A stretch of 32,000 nt of DNA, taken from positions 1,500,001 to 1,532,000 of the forward strand of contig NC_009925.1 of the NCBI RefSeq assembly GCF_000018105.1, given 5' to 3'. Position numbers and translations under genes: made by a program. The stretch comes from Acaryochloris marina MBIC11017 (GTDB taxonomy: Bacteria; Cyanobacteriota; Cyanobacteriia; Thermosynechococcales; Thermosynechococcaceae). Under the pieces are notes generated by a model. It saw only the letters and a program-made list of their open reading frames with translations, searched no databases and was not told the origin of the DNA. How positions within the stretch are numbered: the stretch's first letter is position 1; the number at the start of each line of letters is the position of its first letter. Below, piece by piece: positions 6,756 through 30,077 of the stretch.

Positions 6756-6900
6756 GTCACAACTCCTTACACATAAAGGTTACTCATCGGTACGAGAGGG
6801 ATAAAAAGGATATTCTGGCGTATTTATCAATTTTCAGGTCAATGGCTAAACCATGAATTCCTAAGCGCAGCAATCATAAAGCTAGCTAGGCCATGAATCA

Positions 6901-7386: not shown

Positions 7387-7407
7387 CGCATCGTTATCTG
7401 CCGATAG

Positions 7408-8058: not shown

Positions 8059-8151
8059 AGAAAACTGATCGCAAGTTATCGTCGGATACCCACAGTTACA
8101 AAGTTGATTCTCAACACGAAATAGTTTGGTAGCTCGTTTTGCCTTCAGAAA

Positions 8152-9549
8152 TTATTGCGAGAGATCCTGGCATAGTTGCCGAAAATGATCGCCTCGTCTC
8201 TCAAAGTTTTGATATTGGTCAAAGCTAGCACAGGCAGGTGATAAGAGCACACTTTTAGCTTGCAGAGAAGGGGCCAATTCAGCGGCTCTAGTCACCGCTT
8301 TGTTCATTGTGTCCACGATTTCGTAATCGTCATACCCAATCGCCTTAAGGCGCTGGCTAAAGGCACCGGCAGCACTACCAATCAACAGCACCTTGGCTGC
8401 TTGAGCCTGAATGGTTTGCAGCCATGCCTGATCGTCACCCACTTTGGCTTCCCCACCTGCAATCAGAATGGCAGGACTATTGACTGCAGCTAATCCCGTT
8501 TGGGCTGCTTCATAGTTCGTGGCCTTGCTGTCATTAATAAAATCTACGCCCTGCCAGGTGCAGATATGTTCCAGGCGATGGGCCACACCGGGGAACGTGG
8601 ATACGGCAGTTGCGATCGCATCCTTCCCAATCCCCGCCAAATGAGCCACAGCCACTGCCAGTAAAAGATTCTGCTGGTTATGAACCCCCAACATCCGCAT
8701 GGAGGATACCTGCACAATGGGTTCTCCTTCCACCTTCACCCATCCCTCTTCAATAAAAATATTGGGCACTGGACAGCGTTGACCATTACAGGCATCCGGC
8801 AAGCTGGGGCCATGGCTACTCGTCCAATAGGCATCAGCCCATCGCCAAGGCAATCCTTTGATCAAGCCCTGATCATCACCATTGAGAATCTTCTGTTTGG
8901 ACTGATTGAGAAGTAGGGCCTTAATTTCGCGATAGCACTCAACAGTGCCATGACGCTCCAAGTGGTCGGGAGAGAAGGTCGTCCAGACGCCAATGGTAGG
9001 GGCTAGGGTGGGGGAGGATTCAATTTGGTAGCTGCTCACCTCCGCAATCACCCAATCCAGAGGATCTCCTGCTAAGGCCAATTCACAGGCGCTATAGCCA
9101 ATATTGCCGCAGGCGGGTGCCCGTAACCCTGCCGCCTTAAAGATGGCTTCGACAATGGCAGTCGTGGTGGTTTTGCCGTTAGTGCCCGTAATCCCGACCC
9201 AAGGATATTGCTTGAGGGATCGCCAGGCCAGTTCAAGTTCACCAAAGGTCTCAATGCCTTGAGATCGTGCCTCTTCTAATGCAGGCAACTGCCACGGCAC
9301 TCCAGGACTGACCACAATCCGATCAGGACGGTCCAGACTGAGTTCAGCCAAGGCTGAGAGGGAAAATTTCAGATTTAAATGGACGGGGATGCCTTCTGCC
9401 GCCAAGGTTTTCTGCGTCGCCACTAACCCTTCTGAATGACCTGCATCACCCACCGAAACTTGCCACCCCTCACGGCGCAGCAGACGAGCAGCCGCGATAC
9501 CGGAGCGACCAAGACCAATAATATGAACAGCAGGCATAGAAGGGAGCAA
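8152..9549 (-). CDS. murD: UDP-N-acetylmuramoylalanine--D-glutamate ligase MurD
   Basis: [17 protein letters not shown] Rossmann N-terminus, [12 protein letters not shown]-loop, and Mur ligase C-terminal motifs. The start could instead be the second ATG at 9537. Confidence 0.93.
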
Positions 9550-9609
9550 CGTGATTCAGCAATCCTGATCGTATCGCTTGGTGGTCCCTTTGCTCCAATT
9601 AAATGCTTC

Positions 9610-10656
9610 TTAGGGATAAATTAAAATCTTGTAGGTCTCAGGTCCGGGAGAAACCGCCTGCTCGACCGCATTCGCTAAGTCTTGAAGCGGATAGCGATCG
9701 CTGACTAAGGCATCGACATCAATTCGCTTGTTGAAAATAATGTCCGCCGACTGTTTCTGTAATCGAAAAGAAGAGCTATAGCTGCCAATCAAATCGATTT
9801 CGCGACGATACAAGACATTGGGATTAATAGGAATTTCGACTTCATCGGGGAACTCAGCAAAGAACAGAATCTTACCGCCTTTGCGGGTACAGTCGAGGGC
9901 TTGGAAAAAGGCTTTATCGCTGGGCACGGCTAGTAAGCTGACATCCACCCCCATACCATTGGTCAAATCTTGAATTTTGGAGGCTAGATCGGGATCGCGA
10001 GCGTCAAAGGCCGCCGTCGCTCCCACCTGCTTCGCTTTTTCAATTCGCGTGGGTAAGAGATCCGTGGCGATGGCACGACCGCCCACATAGTTGACGAGCA
10101 TCACGAACATCAGGCCAATGGGGCCAGCCCCCGTGATCAGGACCGTTTGTCCCGGTTTGATATCGGCTTTGGTGACGGCCTTCAAACAGCAGTTGGTGGG
10201 TTCAACAAAGCTCGCTTGCTCAAAAGAAATATCTTCGGGAATAGCAATTAATCCGCCTCGGGTAACGATATGGCCCGGAACCTTTACATATTCGGCAAAG
10301 CCGCCGCCGCTCGGGCTAAATCCTGCCGTGGTGGTGATGTTTTTATACACCTCACACATGGAGAAGTTATCATTCAGACAGTAGTCGCAGTGCATACAGG
10401 GAATATGGTGCAGCACAACCACCCGTTGCCCCACCTGCCAGCCTTTAACCTCAGAACCCACAGCGGCAATCTCGCCTGCCGTTTCGTGGCCAAATATCCG
10501 GGGTGGCTCGTAGAGGGGATAGCGGATTTTTTTAATGTCGGATTGACAAAGACCGACTACTTTGACTTGGACGAGCACCTCATCTGCACCCACTTCAGGC
10601 TTTGGTATCTCTTCGTAGCTGAGTTGATTAACCCCGCGAAAGACTTGAGCTTTCAT
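9610..10656 (-). CDS. Zinc-dependent medium-chain dehydrogenase (sorbitol/threonine dehydrogenase-like)
   Basis: GLCQSD...GHETAGEI...C..C..C......C structural-zinc cluster (CMHCDYCLNDNFSMC), and GAGPIGL NAD-binding motif. Confidence 0.85.
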   Translation of the reverse strand: MKAQVFRGVNQLSYEEIPKPEVGADEVLVQVKVVGLCQSDIKKIRYPLYEPPRIFGHETAGEIAAVGSEVKGWQVGQRVVVLHHIPCMHCDYCLNDNFSMCEVYKNITTTAGFSPSGGGFAEYVKVPGHIVTRGGLIAIPEDISFEQASFVEPTNCCLKAVTKADIKPGQTVLITGAGPIGLMFVMLVNYVGGRAIATDLLPTRIEKAKQVGATAAFDARDPDLASKIQDLTNGMGVDVSLLAVPSDKAFFQALDCTRKGGKILFFAEFPDEVEIPINPNVLYRREIDLIGSYSSSFRLQKQSADIIFNKRIDVDALVSDRYPLQDLANAVEQAVSPGPETYKILIYP

Positions 10657-10719
10657 GCTTCCCGACCCCTAACAAACGTCTGTTTTCAGCTTATCGTGTT
10701 GCTTCCTGTCCCTCAAGCC

Positions 10720-10749
10720 ATGAAACCCCACCAGCAGGCAGGGTTTCAT
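10720..10749 (-). terminator. 9-bp perfect stem-loop between the desC stop and the dehydrogenase start; function uncertain
   Basis: ATGAAACCC (10720..10728), a 12-nt loop, then GGGTTTCAT (10741..10749). On the minus-strand transcript the U-run lies before the hairpin, not after it, so this is not a canonical terminator. Confidence 0.3.
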
Positions 10750-10776
10750 TAAAAAAATTATGGGAGGTGATGGGGG

Positions 10777-11619
10777 CTAGGTACCATCATTGGATGCTAG
10801 CTGTTGAGCATTCGGCAGGCGGACTTTATCTGCTAAGCCCAGAGATTGGAGTAACTGCACCATCATCCAAGTGGTGTCAATTTCCCACCATTGCAAGCCA
10901 TGGCGAGCCGATTGAGGAAAAGCATGGTGATTATTATGCCAGCCTTCACCATAGGTGAGTAGGGCAACCCACCAGCAGTTGGTGGATTGATCATCAGACT
11001 CATAGGTTTTATAGCCAAACTTATGGGTGGCGCTATTTACAAACCAAGTGCAGTGATACACCAACACCAAGCGGACAAAAATACCCCAAACCACTAGAGG
11101 CCAGCCGCCAATGAAGTACAGCAATACCCCAAACACAATTTGCATGGGGAAGAAGTAGTCATCCAAAAACCGATAAAAGGGATCGGTATTGATATCTTTC
11201 GTCAGTTTGTCAATGTCTGCTTCCGCTGGGATTTCATGAATCATCCAGCCCATATGACTCCACCAGAAGCCATTACGGGAATTATGCTGATCCAGATCCG
11301 TATCAGAATGCATATGGTGATTGCGATGCAAGCCAACCCACCAAATCACGCCGCCCTCACAGGCTAAGGATCCGCAAAAGACGAGAAAATACTCCAACCA
11401 CTTGGGGGTTTTGAAACTGCGGTGGGTGAGCATCCGATGCCAACCCAGGGTGATACCAAGTCCACCGGTAACCCAGTGAAAAAAGACGGCAAAGCCCACG
11501 GCTGCCCAGCTAAAGTTGCTGGGTACGAAGGCAAACAATGCTCCAATATGGATAGCAATTAGGACCACAATAAAGGTCCAATCACGCTTAAGCTGTGATG
11601 GCGGTGTTGCGATAGTCAT
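10777..11619 (-). CDS. desC: Delta-9 acyl-lipid/acyl-CoA fatty acid desaturase
   Basis: Three His boxes (HRMLTHRSF, HRNHHMHSD, GEGWHNNHHAFP) and four hydrophobic segments. Confidence 0.9.
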   Translation of the reverse strand: MTIATPPSQLKRDWTFIVVLIAIHIGALFAFVPSNFSWAAVGFAVFFHWVTGGLGITLGWHRMLTHRSFKTPKWLEYFLVFCGSLACEGGVIWWVGLHRNHHMHSDTDLDQHNSRNGFWWSHMGWMIHEIPAEADIDKLTKDINTDPFYRFLDDYFFPMQIVFGVLLYFIGGWPLVVWGIFVRLVLVYHCTWFVNSATHKFGYKTYESDDQSTNCWWVALLTYGEGWHNNHHAFPQSARHGLQWWEIDTTWMMVQLLQSLGLADKVRLPNAQQLASNDGT

Positions 11620-11775
11620 TTAGTCTCTTTATAAATGAATGTTTCGACAAGAAAACAAGGGTAAACCTTATCCAGGATTCTTATACTTGCCTAATCTCCG
11701 CCTAAGCTCTGTACGTCCACAACGATAAAAAATCAAACCTTTAGTGGCTGTACGTTGTAAAGAAAAAGTTGCTCT

Positions 11776-13008
11776 ATGAAACCCCTTACACAGCTAGAGG
11801 CAGCCGAACAGGCAATGTCTCTCATCTTTTCTAAGATTGACACTCAAGTCAAGAAAAACTTAACACAAATATTAAAATCTTTTCATAATTACCGCTTAGG
11901 TCCCCATCATTTTGCTAGTGTATCGGGTTACGGTCATGACGATTTAGGGCGGCAAGTCCTAGATCAGGTGTTTGCCGACGTTATGGGCGCAGAAGCGGCT
12001 CTGGTGCGGGTCCAATTTGTATCCGGCACCCATGCGATCGCAGCGGCTCTATTTGGCGTATTGCGTCCCGGAGACCAAATGCTATCCGTAGCCGGGGCAC
12101 CCTACGACACCTTAGAAGAAGTGATTGGCATTCGAGGCAAAGGCCAAGGATCCCTTAAAGATTTTGGGGTAGCGTATCGGCAACTGGAGTTAACCCCTGC
12201 CGGAACCATCGATTGGCAGGCTCTAGAAACTAGCATTCAACCCCAAACCCGTCTCGTCTTGATTCAGCGATCTTGTGGCTATAGCTGGCGGCCCAGCCTG
12301 AGTATTGAAGAAATTGGCAAAATTGTGGACCGGATAAAAGCCCAAAACCCCAATACCATTTGCTTTGTCGATAATTGCTACGGGGAATTTATTGAAGACC
12401 GCGAACCTCCATCTGTTGGGGCCGATTTGATTGCCGGTTCCCTAATCAAAAACCCTGGCGGTACCATTGTTACCGCCGGAGGGTACATTGCTGGACGTCG
12501 TGATCTAGTGGAAGCCGCAGCCTGTCGACTCACCTCACCGGGAATTGGTTCAGCAGGAGGAGCGACTTTGGATCAAACCCGGTTGATGTTTCAAGGCTTA
12601 TTTTTAGCCCCCCAAATGGTGGGGGAAGCCATGAAGGGCAATCATCTAGTAGCTCATGTGTTTCAGAAGCTAGGCTATCCCGTCAATCCCTTGCCTGAAG
12701 CACCGCGTCGGGATGTGATTCAGGCGGTCAAGCTCGGATCTGAAGAAAAGTTGGTGGCCTTTTGTCGGGCCTTTCAACAATATTCACCTGTGGGGTCTTA
12801 TCTGGATCCGATGCCTGCCCCGATGCCGGGCTATGAAAGTAATTTAGTCATGGCAGGAGGGACTTTTATAGATGGCAGTACCTCAGAACTCTCTGCTGAT
12901 GGGCCGTTGCGAGAGCCTTATATTGTCTTCTGTCAGGGAGGAACCCACTGGACTCATGTTGCGATCGCACTAGAAGCTGCCATTGAAGCCGTTGGCCCAG
13001 CCTCTTAA
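11776..13008 (+). CDS. Methionine gamma-lyase family (aluminium-resistance/YnbB-like) PLP enzyme
   Basis: SGYGHDDLGR..LDQVFADVMGAEAALVR.QFVSGTHAI...PYDTLEEVIG...GSLIKNPGG. Confidence 0.8.
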   Translation: MKPLTQLEAAEQAMSLIFSKIDTQVKKNLTQILKSFHNYRLGPHHFASVSGYGHDDLGRQVLDQVFADVMGAEAALVRVQFVSGTHAIAAALFGVLRPGDQMLSVAGAPYDTLEEVIGIRGKGQGSLKDFGVAYRQLELTPAGTIDWQALETSIQPQTRLVLIQRSCGYSWRPSLSIEEIGKIVDRIKAQNPNTICFVDNCYGEFIEDREPPSVGADLIAGSLIKNPGGTIVTAGGYIAGRRDLVEAAACRLTSPGIGSAGGATLDQTRLMFQGLFLAPQMVGEAMKGNHLVAHVFQKLGYPVNPLPEAPRRDVIQAVKLGSEEKLVAFCRAFQQYSPVGSYLDPMPAPMPGYESNLVMAGGTFIDGSTSELSADGPLREPYIVFCQGGTHWTHVAIALEAAIEAVGPAS

Positions 13009-13018
13009 TCATCAAAAA

Positions 13019-13041
13019 GGGCCTGTTAATGTAACAGGCCC
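13019..13041. terminator. Bidirectional intrinsic terminator between convergent genes
   Basis: GGGCCTGTTA, loop atg, TAACAGGCCC: perfect 10-bp arms. An A5 run lies upstream and a T-rich sequence downstream, between the stops at 13008 (+) and 13067 (-). Confidence 0.7.
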
Positions 13042-13066
13042 CGGGTCGTTTCAAATTTGCGGTGAT

Positions 13067-13309
13067 TTAAAAGACTTGCTCAACCTCAGCAATTTCAGGA
13101 ATGGTGTCTCTTAATTTACGCTCAATCCCCATCTTTAACGTCATGGCAGAACTGGGGCAAGATCCACAGGCTCCTTGCAGACGTAGCTTCACTACAGGAC
13201 CTTCGACTTCAACCAACTCAACATTGCCACCGTCTGCCATTAGGTAGGGGCGCAACTCATCTAATACTGTTTCGACGTTTTCGGGATTAAGTTCTAACGT
13301 TTGTGACAT
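13067..13309 (-). CDS. nfu: NifU C-terminal-domain Fe-S cluster scaffold (Nfu)
   Basis: [43 protein letters not shown]. The start is set at the internal ATG (MSQTLE...), which gives the usual ~80-aa protein. The track ORF extends to 13360. Confidence 0.85.
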
Positions 13310-13438
13310 GACTAAACCTTGGTGTGCTGATCTATATTGTAGCGATTGCAGTAGAGACATTTACGCCTGAACGATATCCATCTCTAACTGCCTGCAGAGA
13401 GTCCCTGCATTAATGAGGGTCTCAAATAGTCAAAAATA

Positions 13439-13464
13439 AAGGGTGAAGGCTAACCTTCACCCTT
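13439..13464 (-). terminator. Rho-independent terminator of the 13489..13794 gene
   Basis: AAGGGTGAAGG, loop ctaa, CCTTCACCCTT: 11-bp perfect stem. On the minus-strand RNA it is followed by UAUUUUUG. Confidence 0.8.
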
Positions 13465-13488
13465 ATTAAAAATTAGGAGCTTGAACTA

Positions 13489-13794
13489 TCACCTTGCAAG
13501 AGACAATTCTTCCGTTTCTACCCTTAAGCTAGGGAATAGAAAATGATTCTCTTCGACATATTGAGCACCGAACAAACCTTTTTCGGCCCAAAAATACCGA
13601 TCAGTCGTGTGTTCGTTGCGTTTGACGAGAAGTAAAGCGGGTGGAATAACCCCTTCCGTTTTAATATACTTCCGGGCTGCCGTTACTGGCTTATCCTCAC
13701 CACTCTCGATACTGAACTGAGGAACATTTTCCAAAATTCGACGTCCTTCCTGTCGACGACGACTTTTGCGTTTCCGTCTTCTTGCCAAACCCAA
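13489..13794 (-). CDS. Conserved hypothetical protein with a poly-basic N-terminus (about 100 aa)
   Basis: No ATG; TTG starts at 13794 or 13788, preceded by AGGAGG. Sequence: RRRKRKSRRRQ...LLLVKRNEHTTDRYFWAEKGLFGAQYVEENHFLFPSL. Confidence 0.6.
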   Translation of the reverse strand: MGLARRRKRKSRRRQEGRRILENVPQFSIESGEDKPVTAARKYIKTEGVIPPALLLVKRNEHTTDRYFWAEKGLFGAQYVEENHFLFPSLRVETEELSLAR

Positions 13795-13992
13795 GACCTC
13801 CTTAAGCTATACCGCAGTGTAGTCAAAGTTACAAAAGCTTAATGAGTATAACTGGAGACAAATTAGAATTCAACTTTATCTTAAGTTTTGATAAGCGAAA
13901 ATAGCTTGACAAACGATTTGTTGAACCTTATAAGCTTTTTTGGATGTAAAAAATTGTAAAGTTTTCTCAGGGATTTATGAGATAATTCGGGG

Positions 13993-14379
13993 TTAGCCTT
14001 CGACCTTAGCCTGGTAGTCTGACGCCGACATGGCCTTGTCTAAAGCGGCAGGCCCACTCACCTTAATCTTGAGTAGCCAGCCGTTATTGTAGGGATCTTC
14101 TGCGAGTTGTTCAGGGGCATCGGCAATGGCGGTATTGCACTCCAATACTGTTCCATTAATCGGAGCATAAATATCTTCTACGGCTTTGACGGATTCGATA
14201 TTTCCCATCGTCTCCCCTTGGGATAATTCATCACCCACTTCTGGCAATTCAATAAAGACAATATCCCCTAACTGATCGATGGCAAATGCGGTGATACCAA
14301 CCGTGGCAACATCTCCCTCCAAACGAACATATTCATGGGAGTCCATATATTTCAAATTGTCGGGATATTCAAAACTCAT
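13993..14379 (-). CDS. gcvH: Glycine cleavage system H protein
   Basis: [22 protein letters not shown]...IESVKAV.DIYAPI.G, with the lipoyl-lysine motif ESVKA. Confidence 0.95.
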
Positions 14380-14455
14380 AATGGGGTGCCTCAGTCAATA
14401 AGGAAGTTGAGTAGGATTTCAGGAGAATCATCCAAACCATATTTTGCCTTAAATC

Positions 14456-15562
14456 TCACGCTTTAGGTCGTCGATAAAAGGGCTTTTTAACAACCGTTGC
14501 CAGTTGGGGCTTCTTGCGGATTAATACCGCTACTTCCGTACCGGATTTGGCATAAGCCGTTGGGACATAGGCGAGGGCAATCGATTTACCCAAAGTGGGT
14601 GAAAAACTGCCGCTGGTGACAATGCCCACTTCTTGGTCATTGACCCAAACGGGATAATCATGACGAGCAATATGACGCCCCTGCATTTCCAAAGCCACTA
14701 ACTTACGGGGCGGTCCCTCTGCTTGCTGCTTCTTGAGGGTGTCTTGGCCAATAAACTCACCTTGATCTAGATTAACCAACCATCCCAACCCAGCTTCGTA
14801 GGGGGTTGTAGTGTCATTTATATCTTGACCATACAGAGCCATGGCGGCTTCTAGTCTTAAGGTATCGCGGGCTCCCAAACCGCAGGGAGCAACACCAGCC
14901 TCCAAAAGGGTCTGCCAGAGTTTCTTACCCGTCTCTGGATCGACCATGACTTCAAACCCGTCTTCGCCAGTGTACCCAGTGCGGGCAAACCAGGCGGGTT
15001 GCTCCAGGATGGTGCCAGACTGATGGCGATAGTTGCGAATGGCCGAGAGATCGGTGGGGGTAAAGCGCTGCAGAGTTGAGATCGCATCGGGTCCTTGCAC
15101 GGCAATTAGCACATGGGAGTCGGAAACATCCTCAAACCCAATCGCTTCAGCGGAAACATTCTCTAATAACCAGGCTTTGTCCTTAGCCGTAGTCGAGGCA
15201 TTGACAATCAGCTTGCCAATTTCTGCTCCTGAGTCTGAGATCCCCTCAAAGTAAAAGATTAGATCATCAATAATCCCAGCTTGCTCATTCAAAAAGACAG
15301 AGTACTTTGCTTGCCCCGGTTCAAGCTGACTGAGATCAGAGGGGACTAAGGGCTGCAGTTTCTGCCGTAAGTTATCTCCCTTGAGCAAGAACTTACCCAT
15401 ATGAGAGATATCAAACATGCCCACTTTTTGACGGACGCTTTGATGCTCAACGGTGATGCCTTCATATTGAACAGGCATATTCCAACCCCCAAAGCCCATC
15501 ATCCGAGCATTGAGCTGCTGATGTTGCTCTAGTAAAGGAGTCGGTTTCAAGGAGTCTGCCAT
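14456..15562 (-). CDS. gcvT: Glycine cleavage system aminomethyltransferase T
   Basis: TPLLEQHQQLNARMMGFGGWNMPVQY...FDISHMGKF...RTGYTGEDGFE...GLGARDTLRLEA. The start is set at MADSLKPTPL (ATG 15560..15562) rather than the upstream track start. Confidence 0.93.
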   Translation of the reverse strand: MADSLKPTPLLEQHQQLNARMMGFGGWNMPVQYEGITVEHQSVRQKVGMFDISHMGKFLLKGDNLRQKLQPLVPSDLSQLEPGQAKYSVFLNEQAGIIDDLIFYFEGISDSGAEIGKLIVNASTTAKDKAWLLENVSAEAIGFEDVSDSHVLIAVQGPDAISTLQRFTPTDLSAIRNYRHQSGTILEQPAWFARTGYTGEDGFEVMVDPETGKKLWQTLLEAGVAPCGLGARDTLRLEAAMALYGQDINDTTTPYEAGLGWLVNLDQGEFIGQDTLKKQQAEGPPRKLVALEMQGRHIARHDYPVWVNDQEVGIVTSGSFSPTLGKSIALAYVPTAYAKSGTEVAVLIRKKPQLATVVKKPFYRRPKA

Positions 15563-15655
15563 GGTAATCCACGTTTGCACTAAGCTTCTGGCTGGGCTCG
15601 ATGTAACACACCATCTGCGAACCAGCCCTCGCATTTATATCATGAACCTAGTGTT

Positions 15656-15690
15656 CAGATCAGTGTTGTTGCGATATGACCACTGATCTG
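15656..15690 (-). other. 10-bp perfect inverted repeat (stem-loop) between the methyltransferase stop and the gcvT start
   Basis: CAGATCAGTG (15656..15665), a 15-nt loop, then CACTGATCTG (15681..15690). No U-tract follows on either strand. Confidence 0.3.
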
Positions 15691-15760
15691 TTGGGAATAT
15701 CATTAACAAATGAATGCGTTGATATATCTGGTGCTGGGGCCATTGGATTGAACTCGATGT

Positions 15761-16495
15761 CTAATTCCTATCGCGAGACTTTTCCCACACGGATACGTGA
15801 TAGCGACTGGTGTTCGTAAAAGGCTCATTGTTCCAACCGCCCCATCTTGCTTTTAACTTTAAGTGGGCCAGCCTCGCCATCAGATCCAGCTCTGATGGCC
15901 AAACATAGCGAAAAGGCGTTGAGGACAGTTCTGTATCTCGATCTCGAACTCGCATGTGGTGCGACTTGAGGGATTGAGATACGACATCATAGTCATCTAC
16001 GCCCCAATGATCCGCTCCAAACTCAAAAACATGTTTGGTTTCACCAAAGGGGATGCACTGAAGCGCAGGCACCATAACCTCAATCACAAAACTGCCGCCA
16101 GGTTCGAGATGTATGGCTGCGTTTTGGAAACATCTAACTTGTTCATCCTGGGTTGTCAGGTTCATGATGGTATTGAAAACCAGATAGACCAGGGAGAACG
16201 TTCCATTGCAAGATGTAGTCGCAAAGTCACCTTGAGTCACAGGAATGCGATCTGTTTTTTCAGTAAGTTTAGTGAGCATTGCTTCAGAGAGATCGATGCC
16301 ATGAACTTCAACACCTGACTGTTCCAGTGGTATAGCAATTCGACCTGTGCCAACGCCAAATTCGAGTGCCCTACCAGATCCAGCAAGTTTTGCCAGAAAA
16401 TCAACGACAGGTTTCACTAATTCAGCGTTGGAAGCCTCGACGTCTTCATCATAATTTTTAGCGACTTTTTGAGGGAAATAGTCGTTAGTATTCAT
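15761..16495 (-). CDS. Class I SAM-dependent methyltransferase
   Basis: ALEFGVGTGRIAIPL (motif I), GIDLSEAML, and LVFNTIMNL. Confidence 0.85.
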   Translation of the reverse strand: MNTNDYFPQKVAKNYDEDVEASNAELVKPVVDFLAKLAGSGRALEFGVGTGRIAIPLEQSGVEVHGIDLSEAMLTKLTEKTDRIPVTQGDFATTSCNGTFSLVYLVFNTIMNLTTQDEQVRCFQNAAIHLEPGGSFVIEVMVPALQCIPFGETKHVFEFGADHWGVDDYDVVSQSLKSHHMRVRDRDTELSSTPFRYVWPSELDLMARLAHLKLKARWGGWNNEPFTNTSRYHVSVWEKSRDRN

Positions 16496-16830
16496 GATTC
16501 AAAGGGAAACAGATGGGTAGATCAATCTCAATCGTTGATACACCTGAGTGAGCTACTTTTGCCAGAGATGAAGACTTGAGATCATCAAAAGACCACCCAC
16601 CAAGATTAGCAAAGCAAAACTATCACCACACATGTAAAAAGCTCTTTATGCAGATATTGATCGGCCGAGGAAGCCAGTGGTTTTTATAGAGTCTGCCATA
16701 ACGTCTACTCTAGCGTTGAACTAGTGGCTAGCCTTGATGTAATGGGCATTTGGATCTCTAAACCAAGCACCTATGGCTCAATCGTCTGGTAGTAAATGGT
16801 AGCGATAAATTCGTTCGTTCAAGGTGAGGT

Positions 16831-17694
16831 TCACTTCCGGTAAGGAGCCAGAAGAAATTTCCAGCTTCGTTCACGACGCTGATAGTCTATGGGACATAAG
16901 TCAGCCCGCTCCTGAGGGAGATCGCCGCTAGTGACAAAATTCGCAAACTTCTCAGGATTACTGCCATAAATAATGCAAGAAACGGTATAAAAACGCTGTG
17001 CCCCTAAACCATGGGATGTCCAAAACGGCAGCTCTTGAAGCTGCTCTTCTTCTTCCGCATCCACATCAAACTGATCGATGCCAGCGATGACTGCATCATC
17101 GTCTTGCAGCTCTAACAACATCATCGCAGCAAACTCATCCACTACATTCTCTTCTAGCCCGGTAATGGGAAGTTGGTATTGGTCCACAAAGGCATGACCC
17201 AGTTCGTGAAAAAACGTGAACAGAGCGGAGTAGATCACCTCATCTGCATAGGCTTCAGAAGACTGATTATCTTCACCCAAAATGTCGGTATATTGCTTGA
17301 GCAGCTCGTAACACATTTCGATTTTGACTTGCTCAGGATCATAAAACGCATTCGCTTCACCACATTCTTGAAAGCTAACTGTGATGTCTCTGGGTAAGGC
17401 AAACTTGGTATTGAGCTGGGCAATCAATCCATCTGATTCCTGGGGCACAGAAAATTCCAGGGAATCTTGGAGAGCTGCATAGATAACATTGAAGTTCGCA
17501 TCCCTCGGCTGTACATAAACGATCCGAATGTCACCTTTGTCGGTAATTTGTTGGCGAGACAGTTGGGCAACTTTGATCGGTTTATTTTGAGGTGAGGCAT
17601 TGATTAAAGGACTCGTGCATCCCGAAGTGGCCCATAGCAAACTGCCTATTGCAACGCCCCATTGCCAAAATTTAGGTTTCTTGAACTGAATCAT
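16831..17694 (-). CDS. Secreted or lipoprotein DUF4344-type putative metallopeptidase
   Basis: HELGH zinc motif within FFHELGHAFVDQYQLPITGLEENVVDEFAAMMLLE. N-terminal signal ending ...LLWATSGC. The start is set at ATG MIQFKKPKFW. Confidence 0.75.
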   Translation of the reverse strand: MIQFKKPKFWQWGVAIGSLLWATSGCTSPLINASPQNKPIKVAQLSRQQITDKGDIRIVYVQPRDANFNVIYAALQDSLEFSVPQESDGLIAQLNTKFALPRDITVSFQECGEANAFYDPEQVKIEMCYELLKQYTDILGEDNQSSEAYADEVIYSALFTFFHELGHAFVDQYQLPITGLEENVVDEFAAMMLLELQDDDAVIAGIDQFDVDAEEEEQLQELPFWTSHGLGAQRFYTVSCIIYGSNPEKFANFVTSGDLPQERADLCPIDYQRRERSWKFLLAPYRK

Positions 17695-17990
17695 AAAGTG
17701 GCACTCCTTCACTTCAATCAAACACATGAATGCTTTGCACAATATCTATTTCTAGACACATTCATCGTTCTTGAAATCACTCTAATTCACGGCCAGCCTT
17801 CGCCATTATTTTTGTCCCAAAACTTACGATTTTTGATATTTCGGAACAATAGAAAAAGGCTGTTACCAAATTTGCAACCCCTGTCAAACCTAAGGGCAGT
17901 TGGGCTAGAGTCGGAATGAACAGCTCTACTTGGAACTCATCCACTATTCGGGAGATCCATCTAAGCCATCCTTGTTGTCGAGATTTTCAT

Positions 17991-19457
17991 ATGTTTAAAC
18001 GATTGCCCGTCATTCAAACCCTCTTCAGTACCCTAGCGGTATCTATGGTGCTGACGTCTTCAGCCCTAGCGACAAAGCCAACCTTGATTGCCGAGGAAGA
18101 ATCGTTTAATCCCATTGCCCCCAAATCAGAATCTGCGCCGGTGGAGAACAGCGATGTCGTTGAACCCCGCCGCCGCCCATTCTTCGATAATGGCTATCAA
18201 CGGGTGATTGACCAAACGGTGCAAATGGTCACCAATCCCAAAGCTCAACGGTTGGCCAAACGGTTTGGCTTAAATATCCTCAACGTTACTTGGGAAGATA
18301 CGGGACGCTACAAAAACTCCTCCTTTGGTCCCAACATTAGCGATATGACGATTCAAGTCCAACATCGCGATCCAAAGACTCGGTCCAATCGCCTGCATCT
18401 CATGCCTGTGATTAGACATCCCAACTTTTCGGATAAAACCGCTGATGTTCGCCTCGATCGGTTTTTCCTGAAGGTTGGCAATGAGAAAGGGGCTAAACTA
18501 CGAAAAGTGGCCCTCAAAGATATTCTGAAAGATCCAAGACGGTATCTGCATCAGCCCAATTCTTGGACAGGCCGCCAAAAGTCACTCTTAGCTCCTCGCG
18601 ATACCCATGCACTGGTCAGTGCTCAAGCCAGCTTCCTACCCATACCCAAGGGCGGTAAGGCTGAATTCAACCCGGTGCTATTCAATTACCAGTCCTATGC
18701 AGATAACCCTGCGGTCCTCACGATTCTGGCGACCCGAGAAGGGACCAGCATGACGGTGATTGATAATAAGCGCGATGCCTTTTCTGCAGGTCAGACTTGG
18801 GGACAACGGTTATTCTTTAATCAAAATGGTGAGCGGGCCAGTTTGACAGGGCAGCGGGCCAGCGATTTTGTCAGTAGTGGTCAGTCTTCTTCTTCATCGG
18901 CCAGTAGCTCTAAGGAGGTGGAGGACCGAGGCTTAAATATGGTGCTGCTCATTCAAGTCCCTCTCAAACAGAAACGGCCACCCATGCCATTGTTTACACC
19001 TGAAGCGATGGAGGATAGCGCAGTCGGTGCGAGTGCCCCCACGGCAAAAGCCCAACGCAGTAATGTTGAGGCTGCAGTGATTGGTCATGGTGAAGTGGAA
19101 GGTCCCTTTACCGAAATTGACAACTTGGCGATTGAGCGTGATCCGCGTTTCCCGGTTCGGGTGACGGTCCAATTCTATAAAGCCACCAGCAATGGGGCCG
19201 TCTCTCAGGCAGACATGAAGCACATTAACCAACAAATCGCTCGGGTTTATGATGATGCTGACTATGTGGGCAGTTTAGTGGTCGAGGGCGATACGGGACG
19301 GCCTACAGAGTATGACGGTTCTAAGCAGGAACCCCCCACTTGGTGGCAGGAATTCTGGAAGCGCCATCGTTCTAATACAGGACAATCGAAGGAAGATGCC
19401 TGGGAAATGCTCAATCGTCTGATCGCCCAAGCATGGTCTGAGAATTCTGATTCCTAG
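17991..19457 (+). CDS. Secreted hypothetical protein (488 aa) with an internal poly-Ser linker
   Basis: Signal peptide MFKRLPVIQTLFSTLAVSMVLTSSALA, and a linker SSGQSSSSSASSSKE. No recognised domain. The start is set at ATG 17991. Confidence 0.7.
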   Translation: MFKRLPVIQTLFSTLAVSMVLTSSALATKPTLIAEEESFNPIAPKSESAPVENSDVVEPRRRPFFDNGYQRVIDQTVQMVTNPKAQRLAKRFGLNILNVTWEDTGRYKNSSFGPNISDMTIQVQHRDPKTRSNRLHLMPVIRHPNFSDKTADVRLDRFFLKVGNEKGAKLRKVALKDILKDPRRYLHQPNSWTGRQKSLLAPRDTHALVSAQASFLPIPKGGKAEFNPVLFNYQSYADNPAVLTILATREGTSMTVIDNKRDAFSAGQTWGQRLFFNQNGERASLTGQRASDFVSSGQSSSSSASSSKEVEDRGLNMVLLIQVPLKQKRPPMPLFTPEAMEDSAVGASAPTAKAQRSNVEAAVIGHGEVEGPFTEIDNLAIERDPRFPVRVTVQFYKATSNGAVSQADMKHINQQIARVYDDADYVGSLVVEGDTGRPTEYDGSKQEPPTWWQEFWKRHRSNTGQSKEDAWEMLNRLIAQAWSENSDS

Positions 19458-21005: not shown

Positions 21006-22532
21006 TTAAGCACCAACCGCTTCTTTGGCTGCATACAGAACTTCAGCAGTTATCTCAGTAATATTCCGTTCACGAGCAAATTTCTCGGTATTCCGCTTCA
21101 CTTTGCCGCGAACAAAACCAGGAATTTTGTTGAGTTCGGCTTGCCCATCAGCACTCCAACCCAAATCAGAATCAGCTGAGATTCCCTTCGTGATCACTTC
21201 TTTGGTGTCATGGCCACCGAAGATTTCTAACAAGTGGTCTTCCATGCCGAGGGTAAAGGAGTTGTAAACCAAATCAGCAACCTGATTGGTCCCTTCATAG
21301 CCCAGGAAAGGCTTGTAGCCGATGGGGAAATCTTGGATATGGATAGGAGCTGCAATCACCCCACAAGGAATATTGAGCCGCTTACCCACGTGACGCTCCA
21401 TTTGTGTGCCGAAGATAGCAGAGGGTTCGACTCGGGCGATGGCATCGCCGATAGCACCATGATCTTCATTGATCAGTACTTCGTCACAATACTCGCTGAC
21501 TTCTTTGCGGAACCATTCTTGATCATATTTGCAGTATGTACCGGCCCAAACCACATGAATGCCCATTTCCCGTGCCAAGATTTTGGTCATGGCTGCAGCA
21601 TGGGTGTTATCGCCATAGACAACTGCTTTTTTACCGGTGAGGTTTTGGCAGTCGATGGAGCGAGAGAACCAAGCCGCCTGGGAAACATGTAATGTCTGGT
21701 TTTCGATGTACTCTTCGTAATTAACATCTGCTCCTTGCGCATTCAGTACTTCTTGAATTTTGCGAATGCAACGAGCTGTTTCCACCACACCCATGGGTGT
21801 GATATCGACGAAAGGCATGCCAAACTCTTTCTCCAGATAGTGAGCGGACATATGGCCAATCTCACGATAGGGAATCAGGTTAAACCAGGCTTGAGGGAGA
21901 CGCTTGAGGTTATGGACTGAAGCCCCTTCAGGAATGACTTCGTTGACTTCAATGCCTAAGTCAGCCATGAGCCGCTTTAGTTCGGTGCAGTCATGCTGGT
22001 TATGGAACCCTAGGGTTGAAACCCCAATGATATTAACGGAAGGCTTAGCGGTTTTTTCTTCCAGTAAATCGCCATTCTTACGGGCTTTTTGGATATAAAA
22101 CTGAACAATTTGGTCAAGGGTACGGTCTGCAGCCTGTAGCTCGTTGACCCGATAGTGATTCACATCAGCCAGTAGGACATCCCCTTGAGTGCTAAGGGAG
22201 GCCCGCTCTACAAAGTTCTCTAGGTCTTCTTGCAAAATACTGGAGGTACAGGTAGGGGTGAGGACAATCAAATCTGGATTTTCCTCTTCATCCTTGCGAG
22301 TAATGTTATCGACTACCTTCTCTTGGGATCCACGAGCCAATACATGACGATCGACAACGCTGGCCGTCACGGGAGTGAAATTCCGCTCTCGTTCTAGCAT
22401 GGAGCGCATGACGTTGAAGTAGTCATCCCCCAAGGGAGCATGCATAATGCCGTGAACATTTTTGAAAGAACTGGCCACTCTCAACGTGCCAATATGCGCT
22501 GGACCAGCGTACATCCAGTAGGCTAATTTCAT
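21006..22532 (-). CDS. chlB: Light-independent (dark-operative) protochlorophyllide reductase subunit B
   Basis: [58 protein letters not shown]..., a near-invariant ChlB N-terminus, at full length (508 aa). Confidence 0.97.
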
Positions 22533-25091: not shown

Positions 25092-25420
25092 CCAATACAC
25101 CCAAAACGTTAAGATCGGAGAAATTACGCTCGAATTTCGTCAACTCTCATCTCATGAAGAGATGAAAAATTGTAATCAATAATTTTTGCAAGTAATACAA
25201 ATCAGGCTTTTCTTACGAGAGATCAAGCGTGCTAAGGTCTCAAGTGCTTTTAGAATGAGGAATCAGAAAGTGTGACTCAAGAACTACTTCACAATATCGC
25301 CACAGAGGTTCGACTCTTCAGAACAGTTGAGCAAAAAGAAGAATTTCTTTTCGTGGGCACTGGTCTATTACCAGGATCTAGCTATAACGCTTCCGACGCA
25401 CCCTGATGTAGATCAATGGA

Positions 25421-26009
25421 TGTCCAAGCGAGAAGATCCTTAAGCGCGGCTTTGATAGCCTGCAAGATGGGACATTAGTCCAGCGATATCAGTGTAAGGA
25501 TTGCAATCGTCGTTTCAACGAACGCACGGGTACCCCAATGGCTCGCTTACGCACCGCTAGTTCAGTAGTGAGCTATGCCATCAAAGCTCGCACCGAAGGA
25601 ATGGGGGTCCGTGCAGCAGGTCGTACCTTTGGTAAATCTCATACCACCATTATGCGTTGGGAAAAACGCCTAGCAGACCAGGCACAGAACTGGTCACCCC
25701 CCGCTCCAGCAGGCTCTGATGTGACGGTAGAAGGGGATGAAGTTTACACTCGTGTAGGCCAAAATCTTCCCCCCCATTCAGTCCCAGGGCTGGACGATCC
25801 ACTTCCTTGAACGCGAAAGCCTGATACATTGGAAATATCACACTACCCAGAGAATCTCAAACTATTGGCACAGCTCAGTCAGTGGATGTGGGAACGTCCC
25901 TTTATGTATAGTGTTGGTCTTCGAGGGATGGGGGCAGAATGCTTATGCCAAATTTATTGATCTGCTGCTTATAAGAAACTACGCGCTAATCCAACTATTC
26001 ACGCGATAG
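25421..26009 (+). pseudogene. Decayed IS1-family transposase relic: zinc-finger and HTH N-terminus, frame broken at a C7 run, 3' part missing
   Basis: CPSEKILKRGF...VQRYQCKDCNRRFNERTGTPMARLRT...GVRAAGRTFGKSHTTIMRWEKRL...EGDEVYTRVGQNLPP. After the C7 run (25769..25775) the homology (SQGWTIHFLERES...FEGWGQNAY) continues in the +1 frame to TAG at 26007..26009. There is no start codon upstream of the first Cys. Confidence 0.6.
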
Positions 26010-26348: not shown

Positions 26349-26741
26349 ATGACTAAGCAAAACACGATGCAAATTACCTTTGGTCAAAGTAATCCTGATT
26401 TAGAGGAACATGAGCGGCTACTCTTCTCGAAGAGAGTGCTGTCTGAACTACGCGATCTCGATCAAGTAGAGCATGCAGAACGCACTGAAAAGGAAGCATC
26501 TGAATTTGGAGAGAAAGGCTTTTCTACACTGGTGGGTTTTTTAACTGCAGAGGTTACTTTGCCAAACCTGAAAGCATTTATAAACTGGATGGGAGATCGC
26601 TTTTCGGATCAACCGATGAAAGTGAAGGTCAAGGTTGGTGAGCAGGAAGTCGAATTCGAAGCCCGGAGTCAACTAGAATTGGCTCAGCTTGAGGAGGTGG
26701 CCAACTCTCTATTGGCCAAAATGAGTGCGGGTGGAGCGTAA
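26349..26741 (+). CDS. Small acidic protein, EACC1-like (effector-associated constant component; assignment from memory)
   Basis: MQITFGQSNPDLEEHERLLFSKRVLSELRDLDQVE...GEKGFSTLVGFLTAEV...LKAFINWMGDRF...VKVKVGEQEVEFEARSQLELAQLEE. Possible starts: GTG 26328, ATG 26349, ATG 26367. The stop lies 1 nt before the next gene's ATG. Confidence 0.55.
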   Translation: MTKQNTMQITFGQSNPDLEEHERLLFSKRVLSELRDLDQVEHAERTEKEASEFGEKGFSTLVGFLTAEVTLPNLKAFINWMGDRFSDQPMKVKVKVGEQEVEFEARSQLELAQLEEVANSLLAKMSAGGA

Positions 26742-26742
26742 A

Positions 26743-28530
26743 ATGTCGGAGTCTAAGAAATCCGCACTACTGATCGGGGTTAGTGAATATGGTGAGGGGT
26801 TAAACGCCCTCAGTGCTCCTCCAATGGATGTAGTAGCGATGAAGCAGGTGTTGGGAAATTCTGACCTTGGCGGTTTTAGCTCAGCCAATATTAAAGTCCT
26901 GATCAACCCTGATCTTGCTGAGATGCGCGAAAACATCGAGGATCTGTTTACACGATCGTCTAAGCAAGATTTAGTGCTGCTCTACTTCTCAGGTCATGGA
27001 ATTACTGATGATAACAACCGCCTCTACCTCACATCACGGAACACATCTAAAATACGCTATCGTTCCCGGTCAGTACCTGCCAGCTTCATCCAAAATTTAT
27101 CAGATGATACTCATGCAAAGCGACAGGTGATTATTCTTGACTGTTGTTATAGCGGGGCGTTTGCCGAAGGGTGGCAGAGAAAGGGCAATGCCAAGGTCGA
27201 GCTAGAGCGTGAACTAGGCAAAGAGGGGCGCGTGGTGCTGACTTCGTCATCATCCACTCAGGTATCCTTTCAACAAGAAGATGCAGAGCTATCACTTTAT
27301 ACACAATATCTTATAGAAGGTATTGAGGTAGGTGCTGCAGATGAAGACCAAGATGGCATCGTAACGGTGCGAGAATTGCACAACTATGCCAAGAAAAAGG
27401 TACAAGCAGTCAAGCCTAATATGAAACCCGACATCATCGTGGCAAATGACGAGGGCTATGACATTTTCTTAAGCAAGGTCAAAATTGACGCCGAATCAAA
27501 GTTTAGAACGCTAGTCGAAAACTATATCAACCATGAACTAGGCGAAATCCATAGCCATCGCTCACAAGAAATTTTAGATAAACACGCTAGAGTGCTGGGT
27601 CTTGCGGTTGGTCACAGTCAAGCGATTATTGCAAGCGTGTTAGAACCTACTCGTCGCCGCCTCAAAAATCTGGAGCGTTATCGCCAGGAGTATGAAGCTG
27701 AAGTTCAAAAGCATTATCCACTCAGCGAGGCAACGCTAACAGAAATGAAAGACTGGCAACAAGAAATCTTAGGCCTAGCAGATGGAGATGTTGCCAAGAT
27801 TCAAAATGAAGTTAATTCTGCTAAAGAAAGTCAAATTGCAAAACCAAAGCAAGATTTAGAACTTCGGCGTGCTAAAGCAGAGCATCAGCATCAAGCAATT
27901 GAGCAACAAGAAGAACAACTGAAACGAGAAAGGCCGGAAACTGAAGCCCAGTTCCAGCAAAAAGAGCCTGAACTAGAACAACAAATGGCACTTGAGCAGC
28001 AAAAGCAAACCATGTCAGGCCTAGAAGAGAATGGCCAGGATGACCTAAGTTCAGAACGATTTAGGGGCAAATATCTCGCCAAGCTGCGCGACCTGTTAGT
28101 AGCTAAAGACTGGAAAGCTGCTGATCAGGAAACTGCCGAGCGTATGAAAGAAGTAATGGGTGAAACTCTAGACGAAAAAATTATTCGGCGATTTCCCTGT
28201 AGGGATTTACTCAACATTGATCGCCTGTGGATGAAATATAGTGGGGGAAAATTTGGTTTTACTGTCCAGCATGCAATTTGGGAGAGTTGTAATAAGGATT
28301 GGAACAAATTTGGTACTACAGTAAACTGGAGAGATCCGAATAGCTGGCCCAAAACCTTGAGTTGGTACATTGAAAGCAAATACACTTTTAGTAATAAAGC
28401 CGTTAAAGGTCATCTTCCAACGATGCGAGCTTTTTTTGTTTTTGGATTTGCGATTAAACTACAAAGTGTGGGCGAATGCGAGTTAGAATTCGCCGCCCTT
28501 ATGTCAAGGGTTAAAGACTGTAGCAAATAA
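26743..28530 (+). CDS. Orthocaspase (peptidase C14), coiled coil, and C-terminal GUN4 domain in one 595-aa protein
   Basis: ALLIGVSEYG...LLYFSGHG (His codon 26995..26997)...VIILDCCYSGAF (Cys codon 27145..27147). A Q/E-rich segment lies at about 27850..28045. C-terminal GUN4 signature: DWKAADQET...FPCRDLLNIDRLWMKYSGGKFGFTVQ...GHLP. The start is set at ATG 26743 (GGTGGAG upstream), not the track's GTG 26725. Confidence 0.85.
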   Translation: MSESKKSALLIGVSEYGEGLNALSAPPMDVVAMKQVLGNSDLGGFSSANIKVLINPDLAEMRENIEDLFTRSSKQDLVLLYFSGHGITDDNNRLYLTSRNTSKIRYRSRSVPASFIQNLSDDTHAKRQVIILDCCYSGAFAEGWQRKGNAKVELERELGKEGRVVLTSSSSTQVSFQQEDAELSLYTQYLIEGIEVGAADEDQDGIVTVRELHNYAKKKVQAVKPNMKPDIIVANDEGYDIFLSKVKIDAESKFRTLVENYINHELGEIHSHRSQEILDKHARVLGLAVGHSQAIIASVLEPTRRRLKNLERYRQEYEAEVQKHYPLSEATLTEMKDWQQEILGLADGDVAKIQNEVNSAKESQIAKPKQDLELRRAKAEHQHQAIEQQEEQLKRERPETEAQFQQKEPELEQQMALEQQKQTMSGLEENGQDDLSSERFRGKYLAKLRDLLVAKDWKAADQETAERMKEVMGETLDEKIIRRFPCRDLLNIDRLWMKYSGGKFGFTVQHAIWESCNKDWNKFGTTVNWRDPNSWPKTLSWYIESKYTFSNKAVKGHLPTMRAFFVFGFAIKLQSVGECELEFAALMSRVKDCSK

Positions 28531-28867: not shown

Positions 28868-30077
28868 GTGTTCAGTCAAGAAAAGACTGACAGGTATATT
28901 TTCTAGAATGAAATGGACGCATTCTAGGAGAACGTCATGGGTAAACGGTACATCGTCACTCTGAGTGAGCCAGAGCAACAGTATCTCAAGAATTTCACGT
29001 TCACGGGAAAACGAGGTGCTCGGCAAATCAATCATGCCCGCATTCTTCTGAAAGCGGATACTAACCAAACTCATGGTGGTTGCTGTGATCGAGAAATTCA
29101 TGAAGCGATAGGTGTCAGCATACGCACAATTGAGCGGGTGCGTATGCGATTTGTGGAAGAAGGCCTTGAAGCTGCTATCAATCAACGTTCTGGGGCAGGT
29201 CGAAAGCGAAAAATACAAGGAGAACAAGAAGCTCATCTGATTGCCTTACGCTGCAGTGAACCCCCCGTTGGTCATGCTCGCTGGACATTACGCTTACTCG
29301 CAGACCAGATGGTGGAATTAGGCTACATCGACCACCTCAGTCATGAGAGTGTCCGACAAACTCTAAAAAAAACGAGTTGCAGCCTTGGCGAAAGACCTGT
29401 TGGGTCATCCCCCCACAGCAGAATGCAGAATTTGTCTGGCGAATGGAGGAGCTCTTAACGGTTTATGAGCGTCCTTATGACTTGAGGAATCCTTTGATTT
29501 GTCTGGATGAAGCCACCAAGCAATTGGTTGAGGAAATCACTCTACCCATCGCGGCTCAACGTGGTCAACCCGAACGTGTTGACTATGAGTATGAACGTAA
29601 GGGCACAGCCAATCTCTTTATGTTGTGTGAGCCAATAGTAGGCACGCGATATGTGAAAGTAACTCAACGACGAACTGCCATTGACTATGCTCATCTACTC
29701 AAAGAATTAGTGGATGTGTTTTACCCTGAGGCCCACACCCTCACGCTGGTTCAAGACAATCTCAATATTCACTCCCCCTCCTCACTCTACAAAGCTTTTG
29801 AACCTGAAGAAGCCAGGAGACTTTTATCTCGGTTCGAATTTTTCTACACCCCCAAACATGGAAGCTGGCTCAATATGGCTGAGATTGAATTAAGTATCCT
29901 GTCTCGTCAATGTTTAGATCAACGCATTGCTGATTTTCCAACCTTACAAAAGCATGTGAGGGCTTGGAATGAGCACCGAAACCAAAAGGGAACATGGATT
30001 GACTGGCGGTTCACGACGCAAGATGCCAGGGTCAAATTACACAGACTTTACCCATCAATAAATCTTTGACGGAATAC
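28868..30077 (+). mobile_element. IS630-family insertion sequence, apparently intact (1210 bp)
   Basis: Terminal inverted repeats GTGTTCAGTCAA (28868..) and the reverse complement of 30066..30077, GTATTCCGTCAA (10 of 12 match). Flanked by TA at 28866..28867 and 30078..30079, the expected TA target duplication. Confidence 0.8.
28937..30069 (+). CDS. IS630-family DDE transposase made from two frames by a -1 shift at A_AAA_AAA (29365..29371)
   Basis: ORFA (HTH: ARILLKADTNQTH...IGVSIRTIERV) ends ...RQTLKK. The -1 frame continues NELQPWRKTCWVIPP...CLDEATK...LVQDNLNIHS...WLNMAEIE (D, D, E triad). AGGAG lies 6 nt before the ATG. Confidence 0.85.

Follow-up and report, generated by a model that had tools for sequence, protein, structure and literature searches.

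An EACC1-family gene coupled to a caspase–GUN4 gene in Acaryochloris marina: a probable member of a known two-gene conflict system

In the chromosome of the cyanobacterium Acaryochloris marina MBIC11017, a gene for a small acidic protein stands a single nucleotide upstream of a gene for a caspase-like protease with a C-terminal GUN4 domain. To what kind of system does this pair belong, and how might its two products work together? The pair lies in a 32,000 nucleotide (nt) stretch of DNA (NC_009925.1 positions 1,500,001–1,532,000, hereafter the window, from whose first nucleotide all coordinates are counted). A preliminary description based on the sequence alone had taken it for an uncharacterised two-gene conflict module of minimal or novel configuration, with a small protein resembling the EACC1 family. 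The analysis reported here supports the conflict or cell-death module in that description through membership of the EACC1–caspase group: the pair is very probably an intact member of the two-gene EACC1–caspase conflict/cell-death system known as “System 4”, in the GUN4 form that is common in cyanobacteria.

The upstream gene (26349..26741, + strand) runs from ATG 26349 to the TAA at 26739–26741 and encodes an acidic protein of 130 amino acids (aa; isoelectric point 4.8, 14.7 kDa) that is 100% identical to AM1_1545. Its open reading frame (ORF) offers three candidate starts: GTG 26328 (giving 137 aa), ATG 26349 (130 aa) and ATG 26367 (124 aa), the last of which, 18 nt downstream of ATG 26349, is that of the deposited AM1_1545 annotation. 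An N-terminus of the form MTxxPxIQITFG is common to 22 orthologues of the small protein, and the 130-aa form has also been called independently in five other assemblies. Because the orthologue N-termini and the independent gene calls agree, we place the start at ATG 26349, which is probably the start codon of AM1_1545 in place of the deposited one. The gene junction (26730..26745, +) can be read directly from the sequence, and its elements are as first described: a Shine–Dalgarno-like GGTGGAG at 26730–26736, ending 6 nt upstream of the caspase ATG at 26743–26745, the TAA of the small gene, and a single A (26742) between stop and start, so that the gap is 1 nt. The second ORF extends from ATG 26743 to the TAA at 28528–28530 and encodes a 595-aa protein identical to a RefSeq entry from Acaryochloris marina. 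Comparison of the small gene with its nearest orthologue gives proportions of nonsynonymous and synonymous differences (pN and pS) of 0.12 and 0.62 and a ratio of the corresponding rates (dN/dS) of about 0.1, with the same pattern in the caspase gene; the small ORF is thus a real, conserved gene under purifying selection, as its preliminary reading required. Antisense ORFs of 57–86 aa within both genes were set aside as mechanical by-products, purifying selection on the sense strand being strong. Promoter and terminator scans gave signals no better than those of shuffled sequence.

The 595-aa protein begins with a caspase (Peptidase C14) domain (residues 1–245; 26743..27477, +), matched by Pfam PF00656 Peptidase_C14 over residues 6–221 (E 3.7e-21). 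Both catalytic residues named in the preliminary description are in place, namely His85 (CAT, 26995–26997) in YFSGHG and Cys135 (TGT, 27145–27147) in DCCYSG; neither varies among the 43 homologues compared. The NCBIfam model NF047832, “caspase, EACC1-associated type”, gives 170.1 bits over residues 7–222 (cutoff 140), and the RefSeq name for exactly the same protein is already “caspase, EACC1-associated type”. In an AlphaFold2 (AF2) model of the whole protein the mean predicted local distance difference test score (pLDDT) is 81, with about 90 for the caspase domain, for which the best Foldseek matches are the MALT1 paracaspase and metacaspases (E ~1e-9). Beyond this lies a folded helical module (residues 250–345; 27490..27777, +; AF2 pLDDT 90–98). 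A tblastn search with residues 251–430 gave matches 3′ of the caspase domain at 29 loci, among them loci with DnaJ_C and FGE-sulfatase partners; judged from these matches, the helical module is part of the constant portion common to caspases with other C-terminal domains.

The AF2 model also contains the long helix and glutamine/glutamate-rich (Q/E-rich) segment of the preliminary description, as a single helix at residues 347–396 followed by a low-confidence Q/E-rich spacer at 397–431 (27781..28035, +). The protein ends in the predicted sensor domain, GUN4 (residues 445–595, which with the stop codon occupy 28075..28530, +), matched by Pfam PF05419 GUN4 over residues 445–562 (E 9.9e-33, 113.7 bits against a cutoff of 29.2). 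Searched against PDB sequences, this domain aligns to the Gun4 structures 1Z3X (E 5e-16) and 1Y6I (E 9e-13), and Foldseek superposes it on 1Z3X, the Gun4 protein of Thermosynechococcus, with a root-mean-square deviation of 2.7 Å over 159 columns. Within its conserved GHLP motif P559 never varies and G556, H557 and L558 hardly do. The loop at 561–575, the counterpart of the porphyrin-binding loop region, has low confidence in the AF2 model. The caspase plus GUN4 architecture is found in more than 90 of the best 120 homologues.

The assignment of the small protein runs through its relatives. Searched on its own it has no match to Pfam PF19953 EACC1 (gathering threshold 23.6 bits, model length 107 positions) even at E <= 10 and none to NCBIfam models, permissive E-values included, both of which count against membership of the EACC1 family; a PADLOC scan found no family for it. 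Ten orthologues that are 47–67% identical to the small protein score 25.0–31.6 bits on PF19953, over model positions 7–106 of 107; the same model is matched by 16 of 23 close orthologues, and one orthologue has already been named EACC1 by the Joint Genome Institute (JGI). A family profile search of 1.8 billion proteins returned 374 cluster representatives. PF19953 is matched by 13 of 53 distant representatives, and a profile of these 53 aligns to the close-orthologue profile with an hhalign probability of 99.9% (E 3.9e-33). In addition, the small protein has the layout of an EACC1 protein, with a central, Gly-containing hydrophobic segment and alpha+beta flanks. Because close orthologues pass the Pfam threshold, the EACC1 assignment stands despite the lack of a direct match, and membership of the family by transitive homology through the orthologues is supported. 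The EACC1 assignment in the preliminary description is therefore supported, though indirectly: the orthologues pass PF19953 and the caspase passes NF047832, but the window protein itself, taken alone, lacks a significant EACC1 hit and is rescued by its close orthologues.

Structure comparison adds little to this. The family profile, run against PDB sequences, returned nothing meaningful (E >= 0.19), no solved structure of the EACC1 family was found, and Foldseek comparison of the small-protein model with the PDB gave generic ferredoxin-like matches, the best with an E of 0.017; since these neighbours are generic, with E > 0.01, the fold gives no functional information. Among plasmid records there was one weak match to the small protein and no other. 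A weak EACC1-like match on plasmid pn3 of Nostoc sp. UHCC 0926 (locus L051, 1881–5369; 28% identity, E 2e-4) lies at the C-terminal end of a 1162-aa protein labelled “SAV_2336 N-terminal domain-related protein”, next to a MoxR ATPase, and an EACC1-like domain is also C-terminal in the long cluster representatives P0113, P0123, P0151, P0222 and P0230. As these long proteins bear it at their C-termini, the EACC1-like domain is not always a stand-alone protein.

Is the pairing of the two genes a property of the family or of this one chromosome? Scanning one genome per species, we obtained 42 cyanobacterial loci that encode a relative of the small protein. A caspase gene lies directly downstream on the same strand in 36 of them, spread over many cyanobacterial genera, and in 34 of these 36 it starts between −41 and +40 nt from the EACC1 stop codon, a 14-nt overlap being the commonest arrangement. 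The coupling first noticed in the 1-nt gap of the A. marina pair is thus matched at most related junctions, and the proposed adjacency is conserved. The reverse comparison, from the caspase side, adds four loci: a homologous small gene of 125–135 aa stands immediately upstream in all three caspase–GUN4 genes inspected (from Nostoc punctiforme, a Nostocales strain whose RefSeq protein carries the label Tolypothrix, and a metagenome-assembled contig) and upstream of one caspase–HSP70 gene. Catalogued orthocaspase–GUN4 proteins therefore carry a conserved upstream EACC1 partner.

The C-terminal end of the caspase is the part that varies. GUN4 occupies this position on 18 of the downstream caspases in the 36 loci, and other orthologous cores end in DnaJ_CXXCXGXG plus DnaJ_C, FGE-sulfatase, HSP70 or EF-hand domains. 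The closest orthologous pair of all (L001 1438–4036, the same as L009), in which the small protein is 79% identical and the caspase and helical module are the same, ends not in GUN4 but in a DnaJ zinc finger and DnaJ C-terminal substrate-binding domain. Another pair (L061 3607–6808) ends in HSP70/DnaK. Since both DnaJ and HSP70/DnaK ends occur, both halves of the co-chaperone system appear as alternative “sensor” ends; DnaK fusions, but never DnaJ, are mentioned by Evans et al. 2025 (10.1101/2025.11.14.688446). What the loci have in common is a constant set of EACC1, caspase and helical module with a swappable C-terminal domain.

This arrangement closely resembles a system that has already been defined. 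Kaur et al. 2020 (eLife, PMC7159879) described “System 4” as two genes, a 5′ EACC1 gene and a 3′ gene for an N-terminal caspase with any of ~50 alternative C-terminal domains, found mainly in actinobacteria; they also reported GUN4 fused to caspases in cyanobacteria and proposed that GUN4 reports tetrapyrrole status. The A. marina pair shares with System 4 a small 5′ EACC1 gene tightly coupled to a 3′ caspase gene with a variable C-terminus, the lack of a separate NTPase, and a host that is a cyanobacterium scored as multicellular in the same work (PMC7159879). It differs in that the small protein does not reach the Pfam threshold and owes its assignment to orthologues only, and in the extra conserved helical module that follows the caspase in this cyanobacterial clade. 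Neither this locus nor the GUN4 architecture was found in the portion of the supplementary data of Kaur et al. 2020 that was available. Orthocaspases with a C-terminal GUN4 domain have been catalogued independently (PMC8283722, PMC7475262); in the accessible parts of these surveys GUN4 ranks fourth in frequency among the accessory domains, with 29 of 473 orthocaspases. The catalogued proteins, as far as those parts describe them, resemble the A. marina protein in having Peptidase_C14 followed by GUN4 and an intact His/Cys dyad, and the same parts make no mention of an upstream EACC1 partner or substrate.

The System 4 definition also bears on the suggestion that the pair might be a stripped-down or new form of a nucleoside triphosphate (NTP)-dependent conflict system, its STAND or AAA NTPase having been lost or never required. 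There is indeed no NTPase gene near the pair, as the preliminary description had stated for STAND and AAA NTPases: STAND, AAA+/MoxR and GTPase domains are missing from both proteins and from the genes that flank them, and no STAND or AAA NTPase was found among the scanned ORFs of the window, and the flanking insertion sequence (IS) elements would allow for the loss of a neighbour. System 4 is, however, defined as two genes without a separate NTPase (PMC7159879); the same layout recurs in the 36 of 42 loci described above, more than 90 of the best 120 homologues have caspase and GUN4 together, and no STAND/AAA+ NTPase gene was seen in nine related contexts that were inspected, which hold toxin–antitoxin genes, transposases and unrelated housekeeping genes. 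The NTPase component of the ternary NTP-dependent conflict systems (vWA–MoxR–VMAP, iSTAND) is likewise missing from the pair and its flanks and from the related contexts inspected. A reduced NTPase system is accordingly a most improbable explanation, and the “minimal or novel configuration” of the preliminary description gives way to a layout that is simply that of System 4.

Nor is this kind of module uncharacterised, as had been supposed: besides the RefSeq name already in place for the caspase, an experimental study has reported cleavage of EACC1 to a membrane-permeabilising fragment. In this preprint, Evans et al. 2025 (10.1101/2025.11.14.688446) show that the caspase KrAvs12 of Ktedonobacter racemifer cuts KrEACC1 at about Asp49, that the C-terminal EACC1 fragment alone is toxic, that cleaved EACC1 renders liposomes leaky, and that the C-terminal STAND ATPase of Avs12 senses phage tail connector proteins. 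KrEACC1–KrAvs12 is the one experimentally characterised EACC1 module, and KrEACC1 itself (WP_007905045.1) scores 28.2 bits on PF19953. The A. marina pair has the same gene order, a small alpha+beta protein with an exposed loop before a central hydrophobic segment, and an intact His/Cys dyad, and the proportions of N- and C-terminal parts are alike in the two small proteins (49/114 in KrEACC1 and ~56/130 here). One difference lies in the sensor, an Avs12 STAND ATPase in Ktedonobacter and GUN4 in Acaryochloris.

How far does the small protein of A. marina fit a cleavage model of this kind? Its AF2 model (pLDDT 77) is an alpha+beta domain with strands at residues 6–13, 40–45, 65–70, 90–96 and 99–105 and helices at 20–36, 71–85 and 108–127, the N-terminal strands packing on the C-terminal ones. 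Residues 49–57 form a disordered loop with pLDDT < 50, and this layout agrees with the cleavage model of Evans et al. The predicted cleavage region (codons 46–57; 26484..26519, +) is the loop before the hydrophobic segment, and the residues in and around it are strongly conserved among the 53 sequences compared (R45 in 52, E47 in 49, E52 in 48, G54 in 50 and K56 in all 53), with G57 and F58 conserved at ~88%, the F58 codon falling just past the loop part. The Asp49 of KrEACC1 lies beside K56-G57 in a collinear alignment that is not significant and so gives a weak pointer; a split at K56-G57 would yield fragments in the proportion observed for KrEACC1. The conserved hydrophobic, Gly-containing segment that follows (codons 58–79; 26520..26585, +) reads FSTLVGFLTAEVTLPNLKAFIN. 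The conserved stretch is K56-G57-F58-x-T-L-x-G63-F-L-T-A-E-V, in which K56 and G63 are invariant and L65, T66 and A67 are present in at least 96%.

This segment fits the conserved EACC1 helix, marked by a patch of small residues, that Kaur et al. 2020 (PMC7159879) read as a transmembrane (TM) helix and that led them to a different order of events for System 4. In their model a membrane-bound EACC1 senses and activates the caspase, whose autocleavage then sets the C-terminal domain free as the effector. In this pair the effector would be GUN4, which might sequester tetrapyrroles or disturb Mg-chelatase. The model was built on that hydrophobic helix and on the ~50 swappable C-terminal domains (PMC7159879), and in the A. 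marina caspase an autoprocessing site could lie in the long helix and disordered spacer (347–431) that precede GUN4. In the small protein, however, the hydrophobic segment is weak: the maximum Kyte–Doolittle mean over 19 residues is 1.17 (residues 60–78), and in the AF2 model part of it forms a strand instead of a TM helix and is folded into the soluble alpha+beta domain. A hydropathy of 1.17 is too low for a constitutive TM helix and fits a latent, soluble form. Moreover, in the characterised member it is EACC1 that is cut and that is toxic, and the C-terminal Avs module does the sensing (10.1101/2025.11.14.688446), and GUN4, DnaJ_C, HSP70 and FGE/FGS are ligand- or substrate-binding modules, better suited to sensing than to killing. 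A membrane-sensing EACC1 with GUN4 as effector is thus improbable for this pair.

We instead consider it reasonably probable, as an overall explanation, that the pair is a System 4 member working by GUN4-triggered cleavage of EACC1, by the caspase, into a membrane-permeabilising fragment. On this explanation both proteins would be produced from the one tightly coupled operon, the 130-aa EACC1 protein as a soluble, autoinhibited alpha+beta monomer. Triggering of the GUN4 sensor, presumably by free tetrapyrrole or by disturbed chlorophyll/haem metabolism, as in phage infection or photo-oxidative stress, would activate the caspase through His85 and Cys135. The active caspase would cut EACC1 in the exposed loop around residues 46–57, and the C-terminal fragment with its hydrophobic, Gly-rich segment would then oligomerise and permeabilise the membrane, leading to growth stop or death. 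Such a latent small effector beside a protease, with a single cleavage causing membrane damage, recalls the gasdermin–protease and Pepco–protease modules, although the folds and families are unrelated and the EACC1 monomer model is ferredoxin-like.

In this explanation we infer cleavage and pore formation by transfer from the one distant characterised pair, and several observations weigh against so direct a transfer. KrEACC1 and the clade of the window protein cannot be aligned significantly (hhalign E 0.4 and 0.18, hmmsearch E 0.2) and are linked through the Pfam model alone; the KrAvs12 caspase is 27% identical to that of the window over only 62 residues around the dyad. For these reasons cleavage and pore formation are, for this pair, a prediction made from the family. 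The Asp49 cleavage site of KrEACC1 has no clear equivalent in the window protein, where position 48, an Asp in ~55% of relatives, is a Lys. On the sensor side, the residue aligned with the region of Arg214, an important position of Synechocystis Gun4, seems not to be conserved in an alignment read by eye. Finally, the study of Evans et al. 2025 (10.1101/2025.11.14.688446) is a preprint and does not treat GUN4 variants.

What, then, would set the protease off? That GUN4 is the sensor, and what it would respond to, we infer from the identity of the domain. A sensor role for GUN4 fusions has been floated before in general terms, by Kaur et al. for caspases and by Kibby et al., who proposed NACHT–GUN4 proteins as sensors, including of virus-induced changes in photosynthesis; in neither case was EACC1 tied in as the executioner. 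We put forward only tentatively the specific proposal that GUN4 is a true tetrapyrrole sensor gating the caspase, such that chlorophyll or haem precursors freed by cyanophage or light stress would trigger EACC1 cleavage and membrane permeabilisation. Were this so, the pair would amount to a suicide switch, guarded by a metabolite, of a kind peculiar to oxygenic phototrophs, and the sister modules with DnaJ_C or DnaK would likewise sense unfolded protein.

A further reading is physiological, with the pair acting as a stress or programmed-cell-death switch, or as a regulator of chlorophyll biosynthesis, and not mainly against phage; the caspase–GUN4 protein would then answer porphyrin overload or photo-oxidative stress and EACC1 would execute or modulate the response. 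GUN4 is a tetrapyrrole-binding regulator of Mg-chelatase, orthocaspases have long been tied to stress-induced cell death in cyanobacteria, the nearest orthologue has DnaJ substrate-binding domains and another has HSP70, and phage records yielded no relative of the small protein. Stress roles are also raised by Evans et al. (10.1101/2025.11.14.688446) for DnaK-fused EACC1 modules. Set against this, the neighbourhoods resemble mobile or defence islands (with toxin–antitoxin, transposase and HEPN/NTase genes, and with IS elements flanking the A. marina pair), and in the one family member put to the test a phage protein acts as the trigger (10.1101/2025.11.14.688446). A mainly physiological switch is rather unlikely, and it would differ from GUN4-triggered cleavage of EACC1 in the trigger alone, the execution step being the same.

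Much of this was already known: the two-gene system, the orthocaspase–GUN4 fusions and the proposal that GUN4 senses status are all in the literature, and our results leave the picture of Kaur et al. 2020 and Evans et al. 2025 as it was. The pair itself is a previously unstudied member in the commonest cyanobacterial form. The hypothetical protein AM1_1545 gains a family, a likely role and a corrected probable start codon, and orthocaspase–GUN4 proteins gain an EACC1 partner that is very probably their substrate, in a field that has mostly lacked substrates. With only two genes, the pair would also be an easy system in which to test whether a metabolite-binding domain such as GUN4 can set off a protease-activated pore.

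Two further observations concern GUN4 itself. The last 160 positions of the PADLOC model for the defence protein PD-T4-6 align with the GUN4 domain (28075–28527, E 2.6e-34), a connection that was not found in the literature searched. In another locus (L060, 6501–8000) a protein-kinase–GUN4 gene stands directly 3′ of a caspase–GUN4 gene.

The pair has as neighbours thrS, an IS fragment, an IS630 element, a radical-SAM activase gene and an AOX/PTOX (alternative-oxidase-like) gene, and ten large ORFs scanned in 1652–19457 belong to housekeeping or transposase families only, with one, a 513-aa ORF at 17916–19457 (+), having no Pfam match at E <= 1e-4. No Rfam families or tRNAs were found in the window. 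About 4 kb upstream of the GUN4-domain gene lies a chlB-like gene (21006–22532, −) with Oxidored_nitro and PCP_red domains, for a subunit of the light-independent protochlorophyllide reductase; a link between the two was dropped, as no chlorophyll genes stand beside the pair in the other loci inspected, and their proximity looks like coincidence.

The IS elements around the pair that were noted at the outset are both present, and both lie outside the module. Between thrS and the pair is a degenerate transposase fragment (25400..25830, +), a 90-aa ORF with a weak HTH_38 match, in which a zinc-finger-like QCKDCNRRFNERTG is followed by a helix-turn-helix. Downstream is an IS630-type element (28937..30069, +; HTH_32 3.1e-19, DDE_3 1.7e-22), whose transposase is divided between two overlapping frames, HTH_32 in 28937–29458 and DDE_3 in 29377–30069; this split reflects either a programmed frameshift or a decayed copy. 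The third mobile element of the window is a full-length IS4-type transposase gene at 3464–4621 (−; DDE_Tnp_1_4, E 7e-117). Assemblies of other read sets break 0.1–2 kb from the pair, leaving contigs of 2.6–4.2 kb, as would fit repeats on both sides.

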